A stretch of DNA of 7,633 bases from IMG/VR virus record IMGVR_UViG_2654587509_000013; one strand, 5' to 3'. Shown here piece by piece: positions 1 to 7,538 of this stretch (position 1 is its first letter; each line of letters begins with the position of its first letter). A program made the position numbers and the translations under genes. Source of the stretch: a virus. Lineage: Duplodnaviria > Heunggongvirae > Uroviricota > Caudoviricetes. Below the pieces are notes generated by a model. The model made no database searches. It was not told the DNA's origin and saw only the letters and a program-made list of their open reading frames with translations.

Positions 1-282
1 CTGTAAGTTTCTAATAAGTGGATCAATCATAGCTAATAATCCTTTTCAATGAAGCTGGAGGTGTGTTTAACTATTAGTTAAATTTCTATTTTTATAGAAA
101 CAAGCTTTACAACTTCATCAAAGTTTCTCAAATCCTAATCCACTTTGCAAATCCACTAACCATGCTGAATGCTTTCTGTTGTTAAACATATCCGCTGCTG
201 GCACCAAGCAGACAAACACACTAACTCTACCCTACTCCACAAAAGAGCCAATCAATATCTGAACTAATAAACTTTAATCTCA

Positions 283-705
283 TCACTTCAATAAATATCG
301 AGCATTTCCCTGATAGAATGCTAGTATGCGCTGCATAACTTCACTCTTCCGGCACTCGCGACAGATTATGTTCTGACGCCTGTCGTAGCGACGTATTTCT
401 CCGTCAGGTAATGACCAGATAAGGTCCGGATCAACCGCAGATGGTTCCTTCAGCTTTGCCCTTGAGAGCTTTTTACGGGCATTTTGCCAGTCCTTACGCG
501 CCTGTTCAGACGGGAATAACCCGTAACCAGAGTTGTATACATCGCCGCTGGCAACCAGCTCTCTTGCGAGAACGCTCATCAGATATCTTGTCGCACCTGT
601 CTTGACTTCCAGTTGCCGTAACGTCTCACGACCGCTCTGGCGCACGAGTTCCACCACCTGCCCTTTAATTTTTTCCCGCTCTTCTTGTGTAAAAACTTTT
701 GCCAC
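283..705 (-). CDS. Phage early protein of unknown function (140 aa), last gene of the leftward replication operon
   Basis: Uninterrupted 141-codon frame. GTG start at 705 is preceded by a strong SD (AAGGGGGA, 3-nt spacer). Lies 40 bp downstream of the replication gene on the same strand. No motif I can name with confidence. Confidence 0.75.
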   Translation of the reverse strand: MAKVFTQEEREKIKGQVVELVRQSGRETLRQLEVKTGATRYLMSVLARELVASGDVYNSGYGLFPSEQARKDWQNARKKLSRAKLKEPSAVDPDLIWSLPDGEIRRYDRRQNIICRECRKSEVMQRILAFYQGNARYLLK

Positions 706-745: not shown

Positions 746-1711
746 TTATCCTCTGAAACCAGGCGGAATTTCTGTATCCGGTTCAGAAATATGATTAACA
801 CAACGCTGTACAGGTGAACGCCCCAGGCGGATGACCAGTTCGTCCCATTTTTCGCGGAGCTTTGACGGGCTCATGATGTTTTTTACCCAGAACGGATCCC
901 GCTGTACCCGACCAAACATTTCACAAATTTGTCTGTGGCTTCTGCCATCCAGCATCCGCATTGTGCGCACATCATTGGCCCAGACAGTCCAGTTAGGCTC
1001 TTTTGGTCGCATGATCTCGCCATCATCACTGGCGGCCTGTTCGTAGAGACCCACGATCCGCCCCCATATCCACTGCGCACACGCCAGATCCTCCTGGCTA
1101 CCCCACTGGCGTTTTTTCGCACTAAACACAACTGCGCCAGGGTGCCGGATTAAAAAATCCTGTTCAGCCGTCTGCGGGTCCGGTTGCGAAGCTTCCGGAC
1201 GAAAAGTGTTTTTATTCTCTGTAGTAATCTCTGTTGTATTCTCTGTAGGATCATCGGGCCATTTTGACCCGATGACATTGGGTCGTTTTGAACCAATGGA
1301 GCGTTTCATTTTGACCTCTTCCATCGTGTCATTTTGACCTGATGGAGCGGCGCATTTTGAACCGATGGATTCGCTCAATTTGCCATCATCTAAAAGCTCG
1401 CTCCCATAGTTAATCGTGTAGAAATTGGTCATATCGCGCTTTGATTTATTGAGCTTTTCACAACGCAAGAGCCCCAGCGTTTTCAGACTTGCAAACGCGC
1501 GCTTTAACGTTGACTCTGACCAGAATGGGAACTGTTCCAGCCATTGTTCCGTTGTGTTGTAAATCCAGCGAACACCATCACATTCCATGCCGGAATTGGT
1601 ATCTCTCAACCAGTAATGCAACTGCTGCAACACAATGGCTTCATTTAAGCCAATCTTCATCGCAAGCTGTGTGTTTATAACCAGTGGGCGTTCAGCAAAA
1701 AGAAGGCTCAT
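746..1711 (-). CDS. Phage replication initiation protein (lambda O functional analogue), 321 aa from the first ATG
   Basis: Long ORF at the O position downstream of the Cro-like and CII-position genes. The coding sequence contains a tandem iteron array plus an AT-rich tract, as lambda O contains ori. The ORF track opens at a TTG (1765); the first ATG is at 1711 with a weak GGA-type SD, so the start is uncertain (1711 or 1765). Confidence 0.8.
   Translation of the reverse strand: MSLLFAERPLVINTQLAMKIGLNEAIVLQQLHYWLRDTNSGMECDGVRWIYNTTEQWLEQFPFWSESTLKRAFASLKTLGLLRCEKLNKSKRDMTNFYTINYGSELLDDGKLSESIGSKCAAPSGQNDTMEEVKMKRSIGSKRPNVIGSKWPDDPTENTTEITTENKNTFRPEASQPDPQTAEQDFLIRHPGAVVFSAKKRQWGSQEDLACAQWIWGRIVGLYEQAASDDGEIMRPKEPNWTVWANDVRTMRMLDGRSHRQICEMFGRVQRDPFWVKNIMSPSKLREKWDELVIRLGRSPVQRCVNHISEPDTEIPPGFRG
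1260..1398. repeat. Iteron array, putative phage origin of replication embedded in the initiator gene
   Basis: Direct repeats with consensus CATTTTGA(C/A)CnGATGG start at 1260, 1284, 1307, 1330 and 1353, with a degenerate sixth copy near 1376. Spacing is 23-24 bp. An AT-rich tract at 1203-1250 lies just downstream in the coding direction and carries a 12-bp motif TATTCTCTGTAG at 1213-1224 and 1237-1248, with a degenerate copy between. Confidence 0.7.
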
Positions 1712-2213
1712 AATTCCATCCAGCTTTTTGTTGGTATTGCTGTCGATACGCAAGTTTGAAAGCAATTGCTTTTTCTATAAGTTCGTCAGTTTCACGATCC
1801 ACTACGGCAGGATCAGCAAAAAGCAGTCCGGACTCCACCACATCGCCATATTCTTTGTTTAACCCGGCGATCATGTACGTGATGCTTTTTCCGTCACTAA
1901 TTTCACGATACAACCTGAAATCATTAATCCGGATAGCCTCCATAATTGCAGGCACTAGCGCCGTGAACTTTTCACGCTTATCCCTGGTGTCGATAGCCTT
2001 CCAGCGTTCGAATATCTTCACTCGATTAACGCCAAGCGCTCGCTGATCAACCGCGCCACCTTCATCTGTGACACGCTGAACATCGATGTTCGGGCGCTCT
2101 TTCAAAGCCCAGAATGCTTCAGTGATTAATATCGTCGCCTGCTCCTGTGTCATTCCTGGTCGACATATCCAGGCATCCAGAGCCTCACGAGCCTGTTCAG
2201 GAGTGATTTTCAT
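1692..2213 (-). CDS. Early regulator at the CII position (173 aa), possibly YdaT-like
   Basis: ATG at 2213; its start overlaps the stop of the upstream Cro-like gene by 17 nt and its 3' end overlaps the start of the replication gene. Assignment to the YdaT/CII-like class is by synteny and memory only, not by a motif I can verify. Confidence 0.8.
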   Translation of the reverse strand: MKITPEQAREALDAWICRPGMTQEQATILITEAFWALKERPNIDVQRVTDEGGAVDQRALGVNRVKIFERWKAIDTRDKREKFTALVPAIMEAIRINDFRLYREISDGKSITYMIAGLNKEYGDVVESGLLFADPAVVDRETDELIEKAIAFKLAYRQQYQQKAGWNYEPSFC

Positions 2214-2424
2214 TGTTCAACCGCCCCGCCCGCTTCGTCTTACGATATTCGTCATAAACCTTGGGATCATACAGAAGCTCGCCGCCAGATGCCTCCTGTA
2301 GACGCATCGCGCGACCTTCAGGAACTAGCTCTTGCCATTGAGAAACAGCAGATGGGTCAACGCCAGCAGCTTTCGCTACTTTGGCTTTCGTACCGTAAAA
2401 ATTAATTACGTCTGATTTAAACAT
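2197..2424 (-). CDS. Cro-like HTH regulator (DicC/YdaS-type), 75 aa
   Basis: ATG at 2424 is preceded by a strong SD (GGAGGT). The ORF track start at 2451 is a TTG inside the operator region. Divergent from the repressor gene. Protein has an HTH-like GTKAKVAKAAGVDPSAVSQW segment and a C-terminus resembling what I recall of DicC. Confidence 0.85.
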   Translation of the reverse strand: MFKSDVINFYGTKAKVAKAAGVDPSAVSQWQELVPEGRAMRLQEASGGELLYDPKVYDEYRKTKRAGRLNNENHS

Positions 2425-2501
2425 CGCACCTCCAATATTGAGTTTTCTCAATGCTAATCACTCAAGGAATCTCAAGTCAAGGGTTATTAAGATATCTAAA
2501 T
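2425..2501. promoter_or_regulatory. Divergent promoter/operator region between Cro-like and repressor genes
   Basis: Perfect palindrome TTGAG-TTTT-CTCAA at 2438-2451, followed by direct CTCAAG(G) half-site copies at 2461, 2471 and 2477. Candidate leftward promoter on the minus strand: -35 TTGACT (complement of 2475-2480), 18-bp spacer, -10 TAGCAT (complement of 2451-2456). Confidence 0.6.
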
Positions 2502-2909
2502 ATGAACGAGAAAACTTTAGGTCAACGCATTAGAGAAAGACGTAAGCAGGTAGGCTTAAGTCAAAACGGTTTAAGCAAAGCTGCTGGCGTATCTGGCTCA
2601 TCAATTTCATTATGGGAAAGTGACCATACAGCCCCGCGCGGGCAAAATTTGCATCGCCTCGCCGAGGTATTGCAATGTTCACCAACCTGGATACTGTTTG
2701 GCGACGAGGACAAAACACCAGCTCCCCCTGTTTCACTCGATAGTACCCTAGACTTATCGGAAGATGAGTTAGAGATGCTGCGTTTGTATCGCGCACTTCC
2801 TAAATCAGAGCAACAAGCACAACTCAGCGAACTCCGCGCCCGCGTTGAGAATTTTAATCGCCTGTTCACCGAGCTATTAGAGGCTCGCAAACGCAACAAG
2901 CATCAATAA
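2502..2909 (+). CDS. dicA: DicA-like HTH (XRE-family) prophage repressor, 135 aa
   Basis: N-terminal HTH (LGQRIRERRKQVGLSQNGLSKAAGVSGSSISLWE) and the C-terminal motif VLQCSPTWILFGDEDK match what I recall of E. coli DicA (135 aa). Start taken at ATG 2502 (MNEKTLGQRIR) rather than the upstream in-frame ATG at 2451, which lies in the operator. No S24 peptidase domain, so this is not a LexA-like autocleaving repressor. Confidence 0.85.
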   Translation: MNEKTLGQRIRERRKQVGLSQNGLSKAAGVSGSSISLWESDHTAPRGQNLHRLAEVLQCSPTWILFGDEDKTPAPPVSLDSTLDLSEDELEMLRLYRALPKSEQQAQLSELRARVENFNRLFTELLEARKRNKHQ

Positions 2910-3101: not shown

Positions 3102-3254
3102 ATGGATACTATCGATCTTGGCAACAGCGAATCTCTGGTATGTGGCGTGTTCCCCAACCATGACGGTACGTTCACCGCGATGACATATACCAAAAGCAAA
3201 ACGTTTAAAACCGAATCTGGCGCGCGTTGCTGGTTAGCCAGAAACACTGACTGA
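3102..3254 (+). CDS. ydfA: YdfA-like small protein (DUF1391-type), 50 aa
   Basis: ATG 3102 with SD GAGG and a 5-nt spacer. MDTIDLGNSESLVCGVFPNHDGTFTAMTYTKSKTFKTESGARCWLARNTD resembles what I recall of E. coli YdfA/YdaF. Sits immediately downstream of the dicA-like gene, as ydfA does. The ORF track's longer 2946 start spans the operator region. Confidence 0.7.
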   Translation: MDTIDLGNSESLVCGVFPNHDGTFTAMTYTKSKTFKTESGARCWLARNTD

Positions 3255-3265
3255 TGAGGCTGACG

Positions 3266-3631
3266 ATGGAATTTAAAGATTTACCGTCTGATGTACAGAA
3301 AACAGCAGCTCATACATTGCATTCTGTGCTGCGAGAAATCGGGAAAGATATTGCAAGCGAGCCAGCAAAAGATCTGGCCCGGAAAATCAAGACCGCTTTC
3401 GTTGAGCTTTATAATGTTGGCACTGACTCTGAAACTGTCGAGACCAAGACCGTAAGTTCACCAATATTCTCACTTGAGCCAGGCGTATTATCAGGTGAAA
3501 TATGCACCGAGATTTCCAGCGAACTGCTTCCGGTAATACGAGAAGCAATTTGCCGTCGCGGTTTGGATGGAAGTTACGATCATGACGTCCTGCAAGTTCT
3601 CAGGACAATGGTGACTTCACTGGGGATTTGA
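3266..3631 (+). CDS. Hypothetical protein, 121 aa, co-transcribed with the repressor-side operon
   Basis: ATG 3266 with SD TGAGG and a 6-nt spacer. An alternative ATG at 3254 overlaps the ydfA-like stop (TGATG). Amino-acid composition is protein-like; no recognisable motif. Confidence 0.7.
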   Translation: MEFKDLPSDVQKTAAHTLHSVLREIGKDIASEPAKDLARKIKTAFVELYNVGTDSETVETKTVSSPIFSLEPGVLSGEICTEISSELLPVIREAICRRGLDGSYDHDVLQVLRTMVTSLGI

Positions 3632-3800
3632 TCCCTGCGTCCTCTAACCTTTTGATATAGCGGTCCTCCAAGAAGCGGTAAATTTTGTCGAAATCATCTT
3701 TCCCCTCTGGTTTATTCAGAGGATTACAGGACCCGTAAGTAGCGGCATACATTTCAACCGTTTTATCAAAAATATAAGAGACAAATTCTTCTTTAGTCAT
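3600..3800 (-). CDS. Hypothetical small protein, 66 aa, antisense AT-rich moron-like gene
   Basis: ATG at 3800 with a good SD (AAGGAA, 7-nt spacer). Visibly more AT-rich than its neighbours. The 3' end overlaps the 3' end of the 121-aa gene by 32 bp, convergently. Confidence 0.6.
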   Translation of the reverse strand: MTKEEFVSYIFDKTVEMYAATYGSCNPLNKPEGKDDFDKIYRFLEDRYIKRLEDAGIKSPVKSPLS

Positions 3801-3877
3801 ATAGATTTCCTTCTTGGTTATTCGGAATAAGAAGGATACCACCTCGCCTGACGTGGTTAAAAGCAGGCACACAACAC

Positions 3878-4050
3878 GAAAGCGCACGGCGAAGTTCGTC
3901 TCACTGTACGGTGTCGTTAAATTTAATTCGACCGTGCGCTTCCGGTTGTGGCAACCCGCGAAATGGCGCGGCGGTAAGTATGGCGGGGTTATTCCTTCCC
4001 CGTTGAGGACACCGAGTTGTCAGGTTGACCATACGCTTAAGTGACAACCC
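3878..4050. other. GC-rich structured spacer, candidate ncRNA or protein-binding element (strand unknown)
   Basis: A 13-bp stem with a 1-nt bulge (3881-3893 pairs with 3927-3940), a hairpin CGGGG/CCCCG (3984-3988 and 3998-4002), and a 7-bp stem GTTGTCA/TGACAAC (4016-4022 and 4042-4048). The only ORF here (3814-4044, basic and low-complexity) does not look coding. Confidence 0.3.
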
Positions 4051-4090
4051 CGCTGCAACGCCCTCTGTTATCAATTTTCTGGTGACGTTT

Positions 4091-4133
4091 GGCGGTATCA
4101 GTTTTACTCCGTGACTGCTCTGCCGCCGTTTTT
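4091..4133 (+). terminator. Possible intrinsic terminator (plus strand)
   Basis: GGCGG (4091-4095) pairs with CCGCC (4123-4127) around a long, partly self-paired loop, followed by a T5 run at 4129-4133. The loop is unusually large for a canonical terminator. Confidence 0.3.
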
Positions 4134-4302
4134 AAAGTGAATTTTGTGATGCGGTGAATGCGGCTAAGCGCACGCGGAACAGTTAAAACCAAAAACAGTG
4201 TTATGGGTGGATTCTCTGTATCCGGCGTTAATTGTTAACTGGTTAACGTCACCTGGAGGCACCAGGCACTGCATCACAAAATTCATTGTTGAGGACGCGA
4301 TA

Positions 4303-4491
4303 ATGAAAACGTTATTACCAAACGTTAATACGTCTGAAGGTTGTTTTGAAATTGGTGTCACTATCAGTAACCCTGTATTTACTGAAGATGCCATTAACAA
4401 GAGAAAACAAGAACGGGAGCTATTAAATAAAATATGCATTGTTTCAATGCTGGCTCGTTTACGTCTGATGCCAAAAGGATGTGCACAATGA
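4303..4491 (+). CDS. Hypothetical small protein, 62 aa
   Basis: ATG 4303 with SD GAGGA and a 7-nt spacer. Its stop overlaps the next start (ATGA at 4488-4491), implying translational coupling. Confidence 0.55.
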   Translation: MKTLLPNVNTSEGCFEIGVTISNPVFTEDAINKRKQERELLNKICIVSMLARLRLMPKGCAQ

Positions 4492-4679
4492 ATTCAGCAT
4501 TTGCGCTTGTTCTGACAGTTTTTCTTGTTTCCGGAGAGCCAGTTGATATTGCAGTCAGTGTTCACAGGACAATGCAGGAGTGTATGACTGCAGCAACCGA
4601 ACAGAAAATTCCCGGTAACTGTTACCCGGTCGATAAAGTTATTCACCAGGATAATATCGAAATCCCGGCAGGTCTTTAA
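4488..4679 (+). CDS. Hypothetical small exported or membrane protein, 63 aa
   Basis: ATG 4488 with an AAGGA SD. N-terminal hydrophobic segment MNSAFALVLTVFLVSG resembles a signal peptide or transmembrane helix; three Cys in the mature part. Confidence 0.6.
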   Translation: MNSAFALVLTVFLVSGEPVDIAVSVHRTMQECMTAATEQKIPGNCYPVDKVIHQDNIEIPAGL

Positions 4680-4772
4680 AACAGTTCCGTAATAAATATC
4701 CGGTTTCATTCTTATATGCCAGCAATGGCAGGGATTTGTTCATCCTTAAATCTGTCATGAGGTTAAAACAAA

Positions 4773-7244
4773 ATGAGTAAAGTCTTTATTTGCGCCGCTA
4801 TTCCTGACGAACTGGCAACAAGGGAAGAAGGCGCTGTGGCTGTAGCCACAGCCATTGAAGCTGGCGACGAACGCCGTGCTCGAGCAAAATTTCACTGGCA
4901 GTTCCTGGAACATTATCCGGCTGCTCAGGACTGCGCTTATAAATTTATTGTCTGCGAGGATAAACCTGGCATACCCCGCCCTGCCCTCGATTCATGGGAT
5001 GCTGAATATATGCAGGAAAACCGCTGGGATGAGGAGTCTGCTTCTTTTGTCCCGGTTGAGACTGAATCCGATCCGATGAACGTCACTTTTGACAAGCTGG
5101 CCCCTGAAGTACAGAACGCTGTCATGGTTAAGTTCGACACATGTGAAAACATCACCGTTGATATGGTTATTAGCGCACAGGAATTGTTGCAGGAAGACAT
5201 GGCAACATTCGACGGACATATCGTTGAAGCGTTGATGAAAATGCCAGAAGTTAACGCCATGTATCCGGAGCTTAAGTTGCACGCCATTGGGTGGGTTAAG
5301 CATAAATGTATTCCTGGTGCTAAATGGCCCGAAATTCAGGCAGAGATGCGCATCTGGAAAAAACGTCGCGAAGGTGAACGCAAGGAAACCGGAAAATACA
5401 CGTCTGTTGTTGATCTCGCCCGCGCCAGAGCCAATCAACAGTACACTGAAAATTCAACAGGAAAAATCAGCCCGGTCATTGCTGCCATTCATCGCGAATA
5501 CAAGCAGACATGGAAAACACTGGATGACGAACTGGCCTACGCTCTCTGGCCTGGTGATGTGGATGCCGGAAACATTGACGGCAGCATCCATCGCTGGGCA
5601 AAAAAAGAAGTTATCGACAACGACCGCGAAGACTGGAAGCGTATCTCGGCATCAATGCGCAAACAGCCTGATGCCCTTCGCTACGACCGCCAGACTATTT
5701 TTGGCCTTGTCCGTGAGCGTCCGATCGACATTCACAAAGATCCCATAGCACTGAACAAATATATCTGCGAATACCTGACGACAAAGGGCGTGTTTGAGAA
5801 TGAAGAAACAGACCTGGGCACTGTTGATGTTCTCCAGTCATCAGAAACACAAACTGATGCAGTGGAAACTGAGGTATCTGATATCCCAAAAAATGAAACC
5901 GCGCCGGAAGCTGAACCATCTGTAGAGCGTGAGGGGCCGTTCTATTTCCTCTTCGCAGATAAGGACGGAGAAAAATACGGTCGCGCAAACAAACTTTCTG
6001 GTCTGGATAAGGCACTGGCTGCTGGCGCCACTGAAATCACAAAAGAAGAATATTTTGCCCGAAAAAATGGCACATACACGGGCTTACCGCAAAATGTAGA
6101 TACCGCTGAAGATTCAGAACAACCAGAGCCGATAAAAGTTACCGCTGACGAAGTAAACAAAATTATGCAGGCAGCCAATATCAGCCAGCCTGACGCCGAT
6201 AAGTTGCTTGCTGCATCACGTGGTGAATTTGTTGAAGGGATTAGTGACCCGAATGATCCGAAATGGGTTAAGGGGATCCAGACCCGCGATTCTGTGAACC
6301 AGAACCAGCATGAATCGGAACGGAACTACCAAAAAGCGGAACAAAACAGCACAAATGCGTTACAAAACGAGCCAGAAACGAAACAGCCTGAACCAGTGGC
6401 GCAACAGGAAGTGGAAAAAGTCTGCACCGCCTGCGGTCAGACCGGCGGCGGCAACTGCCCTGATTGTGGCGCGGTGATGGGCGACGCAACATACCAAGAA
6501 ACATTCGATGAAGAGTATCAGGTTGAAGTTCAGGAAGATGATCCGGAGGAAATGGAAGGCGCTGAACATCCACACAAGGAGAACACTGGCGGCAATCAGC
6601 ATCACAATAGCGATAATGAAACTGGCGAGACGGCAGATCACTCAATTAAGGTGAACGGTCATCACGAAATCACATCCACCAGCAGGACGTGTGACCATCT
6701 AATGATCGACCTTGAAACCATGGGAAAAAATCCTGATGCCCCGATCATCTCAATAGGTGCAATATTTTTCGATCCGCAAACCGGAGATATGGGACCGGAA
6801 TTTAGTAAGACTATCGATCTGGAAACTGCTGGCGGAGTCATTGATCGGGACACCATTAAATGGTGGCTTAAGCAATCACGCGAAGCGCAATCTGCCATTA
6901 TGACCGATGAAATCCCGTTAGATGATGCACTGTTACAATTACGGGAATTTATCGACGAAAACTCCGGTGAATTTTTTGTTCAGGTTTGGGGAAATGGAGC
7001 CAACTTCGACAACACAATTTTGCGCCGTTCATACGAACGGCAGGGGATCCCCTGCCCGTGGCGTTACTACAACGATCGCGATGTACGCACAATCGTTGAG
7101 CTGGGGAAAGCCATAGACTTCGATGCCAGAACGGCTATTCCATTCGAAGGTGAGCGCCATAATGCACTTGATGACGCCCGTTACCAGGCAAAATACGTTT
7201 CAGTTATCTGGCAAAAACTGATCCCGAGTCAGGCTGATTCTTAA
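4773..7244 (+). CDS. Large multidomain exonuclease protein, 823 aa: unknown N-terminal domain, acidic linker, Cys4 zinc ribbon, C-terminal DnaQ-like DEDDh 3'-5' exonuclease
   Basis: Single 824-codon frame. Zinc ribbon CTACGQTGGGNCPDC (C-x2-C-x7-C-x2-C) at 6423-6467. DEDDh motifs: Exo I DLE at 6708-6716, Exo II NFD at 7002-7010, Exo III H-x4-D (HNALDDA) at 7158-7178. Sits at the exo position upstream of the excisionase-like gene. Related prophage genes are often labelled exodeoxyribonuclease VIII-like, but no PD-(D/E)XK motif or partner annealase is visible here. Confidence 0.9.
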   Translation: MSKVFICAAIPDELATREEGAVAVATAIEAGDERRARAKFHWQFLEHYPAAQDCAYKFIVCEDKPGIPRPALDSWDAEYMQENRWDEESASFVPVETESDPMNVTFDKLAPEVQNAVMVKFDTCENITVDMVISAQELLQEDMATFDGHIVEALMKMPEVNAMYPELKLHAIGWVKHKCIPGAKWPEIQAEMRIWKKRREGERKETGKYTSVVDLARARANQQYTENSTGKISPVIAAIHREYKQTWKTLDDELAYALWPGDVDAGNIDGSIHRWAKKEVIDNDREDWKRISASMRKQPDALRYDRQTIFGLVRERPIDIHKDPIALNKYICEYLTTKGVFENEETDLGTVDVLQSSETQTDAVETEVSDIPKNETAPEAEPSVEREGPFYFLFADKDGEKYGRANKLSGLDKALAAGATEITKEEYFARKNGTYTGLPQNVDTAEDSEQPEPIKVTADEVNKIMQAANISQPDADKLLAASRGEFVEGISDPNDPKWVKGIQTRDSVNQNQHESERNYQKAEQNSTNALQNEPETKQPEPVAQQEVEKVCTACGQTGGGNCPDCGAVMGDATYQETFDEEYQVEVQEDDPEEMEGAEHPHKENTGGNQHHNSDNETGETADHSIKVNGHHEITSTSRTCDHLMIDLETMGKNPDAPIISIGAIFFDPQTGDMGPEFSKTIDLETAGGVIDRDTIKWWLKQSREAQSAIMTDEIPLDDALLQLREFIDENSGEFFVQVWGNGANFDNTILRRSYERQGIPCPWRYYNDRDVRTIVELGKAIDFDARTAIPFEGERHNALDDARYQAKYVSVIWQKLIPSQADS

Positions 7245-7316: not shown

Positions 7317-7538
7317 ATGAGCGAAGTAATCATGATTGTCTCTCCCGGCAAATGGGTATCCGAAGAGCAGTTAATTGCGCTGAAAGGAATAAAAAAAGGT
7401 ACGTTAAAAAAGGCCCGGGAAAAATCGTTTATGGAAGGAAGGGAATATAAGCATGTCGCTCATGACGGTATGCCATGGGATAACAGTCCATGCTTTTACA
7501 ACCTGGAAGAAATTGATCGCTGGATTGAGCGCCAGTAA
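7317..7538 (+). CDS. Excisionase-like small DNA-binding protein, 73 aa
   Basis: 73-aa basic protein directly downstream of the recombination-side exonuclease gene, where xis sits in lambdoid prophages. Assignment is by position and general resemblance to prophage excisionase-like proteins; the integrase is presumably beyond the right edge. Confidence 0.7.
   Translation: MSEVIMIVSPGKWVSEEQLIALKGIKKGTLKKAREKSFMEGREYKHVAHDGMPWDNSPCFYNLEEIDRWIERQ

Follow-up and report, generated by a model that had tools for sequence, protein, structure and literature searches.

The closest described relative of the locus considered here is the dicBF operon carried by the E. coli K-12 prophage Qin. In K-12, the repressor DicA acts on dicBp, a promoter located 5' of ydfA, and a single polycistronic RNA carries ydfABC, dicF, dicB, and ydfD; a 1,608-nt ydfABC-dicFB-ydfD species has been detected, a transcript end has been reported after ydfD, and the antirepressor Rem is able to derepress the operon (PMC10448788). 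The small RNA DicF is excised from the polycistronic RNA by RNases III and E and blocks translation of ftsZ and manXYZ, and dicB and ydfD are described in the literature as partially overlapping genes of one operon. K-12 DicB binds MinC, and ZipA brings the complex to the septal ring, leading to FtsZ depolymerisation and filamentation (PMC6832061). Via the same interaction with MinC, DicB inhibits the ManYZ inner-membrane channel and thereby blocks the entry of phage DNA; DicB confers roughly 100-fold resistance to lambda, as well as resistance to other ManYZ-dependent phages, and prevents growth on mannose and glucosamine (PMC6832061).

The second protein of the pair, YdfD, is a lysis protein. 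In PMC8835842, expression of K-12 YdfD is described as causing rapid, near-complete lysis, and the same paper, citing Masuda et al. (2016), relates that co-expressed DicB stops this lysis. SulA does the same, and lysis by YdfD therefore requires ongoing cell division. Binding of YdfD to IspG has been observed by pull-down, SEC, ITC, and FRET, and YdfD-expressing cells are rescued by overexpression of ispG or by a supply of the product, HMBPP (PMC8835842). On the strength of the binding and the rescue, YdfD was proposed to block the MEP pathway, and hence the supply of wall precursor lipid, the isoprenoid carrier (PMC8835842). As the authors themselves say, this mechanism comes from the binding and rescue data of one laboratory and includes no enzyme kinetics (PMC8835842).

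We analysed a stretch of 7,633 nucleotides (hereafter, the window) from a Caudoviricetes record of IMG/VR, IMGVR_UViG_2654587509_000013, in which the initial annotation had pointed to two very small genes upstream of an exonuclease. We conclude, with little room for doubt, that these two genes are dicB and ydfD and form the distal portion of a dicBF operon belonging to a Qin-type lambdoid phage or prophage of E. coli, because DicF, a DicA-family repressor, a ydfA-like gene, and the exonuclease surround it, together with a position next to rspB/rspA as seen in E. coli strain L65. Both genes lie on the plus strand. dicB occupies 4303..4491 (ATG at 4303, TGA at 4489-4491) and encodes 62 amino acids, and ydfD occupies 4488..4679 (ATG at 4488, TAA at 4677-4679) and encodes 63, which confirms the two overlapping genes of the initial annotation. 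At the junction, which reads CAATGAATT, the start codon of ydfD and the stop codon of dicB both fall within the ATGA at 4488..4491 on the plus strand. Shine-Dalgarno-like motifs that may serve the two starts stand on the same strand at 4291..4295 (GAGGA, 7 nt 5' of the dicB ATG) and, within the 3' end of dicB, at 4475..4479 (AAGGA, 8 nt 5' of the ydfD ATG). The cassette (4303-4679) was also correctly noted as AT-rich: its G+C content is 40.1% (36.0% in dicB and 43.8% in ydfD) versus 46.8% for the whole window.

The overlap is conserved in four diverged copies of the cassette, those of K-12, mEp460_ev081, vB_EcoM-606R7, and vB_EcoS-640R1, as are the start and stop codons of both genes, and these copies differ by several amino acids. 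Other reading frames cross the same DNA, including an in-frame GTG frame at 4198..4491 and antisense ORFs. We considered the longer forms starting at GTG 4198 (4198..4491, 97 aa) and at ATG 4434 (4434..4679, 81 aa) as the main products and rejected them, since the family profiles fit exactly the 62- and 63-residue forms; RefSeq and the K-12 annotation also use the short starts, and the title of the original dicB paper (Cam et al.) speaks for them as well. A scan for promoters and terminators gave counts not above those in shuffled sequence. At 4717-4730 a weak hairpin precedes a T-rich tract and is at most a hint of a transcript end 3' of ydfD.

The initial annotation could place neither protein in a family, yet both belong to curated ones. 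The dicB product matches the Pfam DicB family PF05358 over its full length (positions 1-62 of 62; E=1.9e-40; 136.8 bits, cut-off 27) and the NCBIfam DicB model NF049927 (E=2.8e-39; 132.8 bits, cut-off 100), and is identical to DicB of K-12 MG1655 (b1575) at all 62 residues. RefSeq labels it 'dicB: cell division inhibition protein DicB' on DNA that is 100% identical, and the operon context that goes with DicB is present, with DicF upstream at 4077-4128 and the DicA-family repressor at 2502-2909. The initial annotation had named clear homology to characterised Kil/CIII-type proteins as its refutation, and in spirit this applies: DicB is identical to a characterised division inhibitor, and the supposed novelty falls. 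A sequence search of the PDB with DicB and YdfD returned no entry for either at E<=1.

The ydfD product matches Pfam PF07358 (DUF1482) across the whole profile (positions 1-57 of 57; E=2.1e-26; 92 bits, cut-off 25) and phrog_1092 at positions 1-63 of 63 (E=1.1e-36), and RefSeq names it 'ydfD: lysis protein YdfD' on 100%-identical DNA. It is identical to K-12 YdfD (b1576) at 62 of 63 residues, the sole change being A6 for V6. This A6 variant is WP_001083273.1, annotated in E. coli E24377A and L65 among the annotations examined, and the substitution is conservative and lies inside the hydrophobic segment. The protein begins MNSAFALVLTVFLVSG, and the hydrophobic N-terminus reported for it is borne out by a Kyte-Doolittle maximum of 2.95 in an 11-residue window at residues 4-14 (AFALVLTVFLV). 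The hydrophobic segment, approximately residues 4-15, is retained in the diverged copies. YdfD contains seven acidic and three basic residues, and its C-terminal part is acidic. Given full-length profile matches far above the cut-offs and identities of 100% and 98% to the K-12 proteins, dicB and ydfD are genuine genes rather than ORFs that arose by chance.

Upstream of the cassette, the Rfam model for DicF (RF00039) matches 4077..4128 on the plus strand over its full length, 1-52 (E=5.8e-15; 72.5 bits, gathering score 48). This small RNA gene lies 175 nt 5' of dicB and has a run of T after it; a single position, at the 3' end, distinguishes it from K-12 dicF. DicF is the best-known element of the operon, and the initial annotation made no mention of it in this finding. 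On the opposite strand, a 51-aa 'hypothetical protein' (4037..4192, minus strand) is annotated in several phage records, at local positions 135..290, also on the minus strand, in three of the loci compared; it overlaps the whole of the DicF gene, and the call is probably spurious. The first gene of the operon is ydfA-like (DUF1391; 3102..3254, plus strand; Pfam PF07151, E=8.9e-26). It corresponds to a RefSeq CDS in identical DNA and shares 90% DNA identity with K-12 ydfA.

The repressor gene, at 2502..2909 on the plus strand, encodes a CI-like protein of the DicA family that matches NCBIfam NF007257 ('transcriptional repressor DicA') with E=1.5e-71; its coordinates are those of the CDS in identical DNA of strain L65, and its role in control is taken from PMC10448788. 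A divergent Cro/DicC-like gene is also present upstream. The immunity region (1934..2909) is a mosaic. Positions 1934-2327 are 98% identical to K-12 (ydfX and the 3' part of dicC), and 2328-2666, which contains the operator region and the 5' portions of both the cro-like gene and the repressor gene, has no match in K-12. This unmatched segment, despite the DicA-family score of the repressor, suggests an immunity specificity different from that of K-12. In the position of cII, a YdaT-family 'toxin' gene encoding 173 aa (1692..2213, minus strand) overlaps two neighbours, the cro-like gene at its end and a replication O-like gene at its start; the YdaT counterpart in K-12 Qin is reduced to the ydfX remnant.

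A second mosaic segment, 3246..3858, has no counterpart in K-12 Qin, and other small ORFs stand there in place of ydfB and ydfC. One, encoding a 'hypothetical protein' of 121-125 aa, runs from 3254 or 3266 to 3631 on the plus strand (phrog_33007), and an antisense, overlapping ORF at 3600..3800 on the minus strand encodes a 66-aa 'hypothetical protein' (phrog_34441); neither has a Pfam family. Because this segment is unlike that of K-12, processing of the upstream part of the transcript could differ here.

The exonuclease gene that had been noted downstream is present at 4773..7244 on the plus strand. It is intact, is the last gene of the operon, and encodes 823 aa, with a match to PF16473 (Rv2179c-like, E=2.3e-67) and a full-length match to phrog_2082; the nuclease domain, of the Rv2179c-like DEDD 3'-5' exonuclease type, is C-terminal. 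In K-12 the same gene survives as the ydfE pseudogene, of which the window has the full-length form; homology to K-12 ends at window position 5539, where IS2 splits ydfE. We rejected the protein as a RecE equivalog, as the RecE (exodeoxyribonuclease VIII) model covers residues 246-625 only, at 282.9 bits against a cut-off of 1269. Some records nonetheless carry the label RecE or exodeoxyribonuclease VIII for it. An excisionase gene starts at 7317, 3' of the exonuclease, and in strain L65, whose locus is identical, an integrase gene comes next, beside rspB/rspA. The cassette thus lies between a CI-like repressor and exonuclease, xis, and int, in the equivalent of the leftward early operon, and the kil/cIII-type position ascribed to it was correct.

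At the far end of the window, similarity to the best prophage and phage records among the matches listed ends at or before 7535, and 7536-7633 matches sequence that in O121 strains bears the annotation of an IS66-family ISEc8 transposase element. This insertion sequence appears to interrupt the excisionase gene, which suggests that this copy of the prophage may be unable to excise normally.

How would the pair act? Since the two proteins are 100% and 98% identical to those of K-12 and the A/V change is conservative, this copy very likely acts as the K-12 copy does. DicA would keep the promoter 5' of ydfA off, and derepression would yield one polycistronic RNA including dicF, dicB, and ydfD. 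DicB, together with MinC and by way of ZipA, would then break up the FtsZ ring and cause filamentation, and would disable ManYZ so that lambda-like phages are excluded. YdfD would bind and inhibit IspG, leading to a shortage of isoprenoid carrier lipid for wall synthesis and to lysis. DicB made from the same message would hold off lysis by YdfD, since that lysis needs ongoing division. The earlier guesses of a host inhibitor, an exclusion pair, or a partnered small membrane toxin come close to these published functions, namely division inhibition and phage exclusion for DicB and DicB-suppressed lysis for YdfD. A classical (type II) toxin-antitoxin pair is improbable: protection by DicB has been attributed to the block of division, which SulA mimics, rather than to binding of YdfD, and it is DicA that regulates the operon.

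Several other readings of the pair were weighed against this one. That both ORFs arose by chance in AT-rich DNA between genes might be argued from their very short length, their composition, and the longer GTG frame and antisense ORFs that cross the same positions, but this is refuted by the full-length matches to curated families, the identity or near-identity to characterised proteins, and the conservation of start, stop, and overlap, and we regard its probability as negligible. More weight attaches to the target of YdfD. YdfD could be a single-gene lysis protein that is anchored in the inner membrane and kills there, mainly by striking a step of division-coupled wall synthesis, with binding to IspG being secondary. 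The hydrophobic, membrane-anchor-like segment at the N-terminus, with its Kyte-Doolittle maximum at residues 4-14 and its retention in diverged copies, is in keeping with a membrane target and sits awkwardly with the inhibition of a cytoplasmic enzyme such as IspG, and the dependence of lysis on active division, together with its prevention by DicB or SulA, points the same way. The N-terminus of YdfD was reportedly treated as a membrane anchor by Masuda et al. in 2016, which counts for this reading too. We retain it on two grounds, this odd N-terminus and the fact that the IspG study contains no kinetics of enzyme inhibition (PMC8835842). Yet the interaction with IspG was observed by four methods, pull-down, SEC, ITC, and FRET, and either ispG overexpression or HMBPP rescues the cells (PMC8835842), and on balance we consider that a membrane or division-site target is unlikely to be the main one.

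The pair could also serve a different purpose. Rather than taking over the host in the lytic cycle, it could be a defence module of the lysogen, in which DicB excludes ManYZ-dependent phages and YdfD brings about abortive lysis upon derepression. The roughly 100-fold resistance to lambda conferred by DicB (PMC6832061), the retention of the operon in most E. coli genomes, often within defective prophages, and the published increase in ydfD mRNA under stress are consistent with such a module. However, the pair is also found in intact, isolated temperate phages, for which an early-operon role benefiting the phage itself is equally plausible, and we think a dedicated defence function very unlikely. 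A further proposal starts from the gene overlap. Judging from the layout of the junction, the translational coupling that the initial annotation stated outright is plausible: the ATGA overlap and the internal AAGGA may couple translation of ydfD to that of dicB. If the conserved overlap also fixed the ratio of DicB to YdfD synthesis, the pair could operate as a lysis timer gated by division, or as a switch for abortive infection, with DicB holding off YdfD lysis until DicB decays or division resumes. This would amount to a built-in antidote/toxin logic within the dicBF operon, but we find it quite improbable that the pair is such a device.

The reading we prefer, a dicB-ydfD cassette with K-12-like functions, means that the feature is real and already known. 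dicB and ydfD are textbook E. coli prophage genes, are found in most sequenced strains, and are correctly annotated by standard pipelines; the analysis therefore strikes a candidate 'unknown host-takeover pair' off the list. Two questions, the translational coupling of dicB and ydfD and the standing of IspG as the physiological target of YdfD, are general to the operon and are not raised by this window specifically.

The distribution of the cassette fits this assignment. In a megablast search, the segment 3900-4800 matched 4753 of 5426 complete E. coli genomes. Between 4060 and 4780, the window differs from K-12 Qin at 7 positions at the DNA level. The two loci share DicB (100%), YdfD (98%), the ATGA overlap, the position of DicF upstream, and the exonuclease (ydfE) downstream, as well as the rspB/rspA neighbourhood, which was seen for the 100%-identical locus of strain L65. 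They differ in residue 6 of YdfD (A here, V in K-12), in the exonuclease, which is whole here whereas ydfE is cut by IS2 in K-12, in the ydfB/ydfC segment, which is replaced by other small ORFs, and in the immunity region, which is partly unlike that of K-12.

The pair is also carried by phages. A 2016 paper, covering about 2,000 sequenced phage genomes, reported that homologues of DicB and DicF were absent from them and inferred that defective prophages are the only place where the operon persists (PMC5069750). This argument is out of date: 8 current phage records, isolated temperate phages among them, contain the complete dicB-ydfD pair, and it is thereby superseded. In four isolated temperate Escherichia phages, Tritos, HannyBb, PhiR42_1, and mEp460_ev081, the 377-bp cassette is 95.5-100% identical to that of the window, and all four also match the exonuclease and repressor regions. 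In mEp460_ev081, the phage in which the flanks were examined, the cassette lies directly 5' of the exonuclease gene, and the match to this phage extends over 95% of the window, with an identity of 95.6%. The four phages differ from the window in that their immunity and replication flanks are mosaic, with coverage of the whole window ranging from 59 to 95%.

Two further comparisons reach beyond the dicBF operon. Lambda Kil is a functional analogue of DicB, in that both are small proteins of the early leftward operon. Kil blocks assembly of the FtsZ ring and filaments the host, and it hits FtsZ directly, whereas DicB does so via MinC. The initial suggestion of a Kil/CIII-type gene thus holds for the functional resemblance of DicB to Kil but not for homology: neither protein of the cassette matches a Kil or CIII Pfam family at E<=0.1, the matches at that threshold being DicB, DUF1482, and one at chance level, and no sequence relationship between DicB and Kil was detected by this search. 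YdfD, in turn, resembles the single-gene lysis proteins phiX174 E (target MraY), Qbeta A2 (MurA), and phage M LysM (MurJ), in being a small lysis protein that cuts the supply of wall precursor without degrading murein, and IspG has been ranked as the fourth target of this kind (PMC8835842). YdfD has no sequence similarity to E, A2, or LysM, and is set apart from them by its reported target, a cytoplasmic enzyme of the MEP pathway, and by its gene's place in an early operon, within a temperate tailed phage whose own holin-endolysin cassette is located elsewhere.
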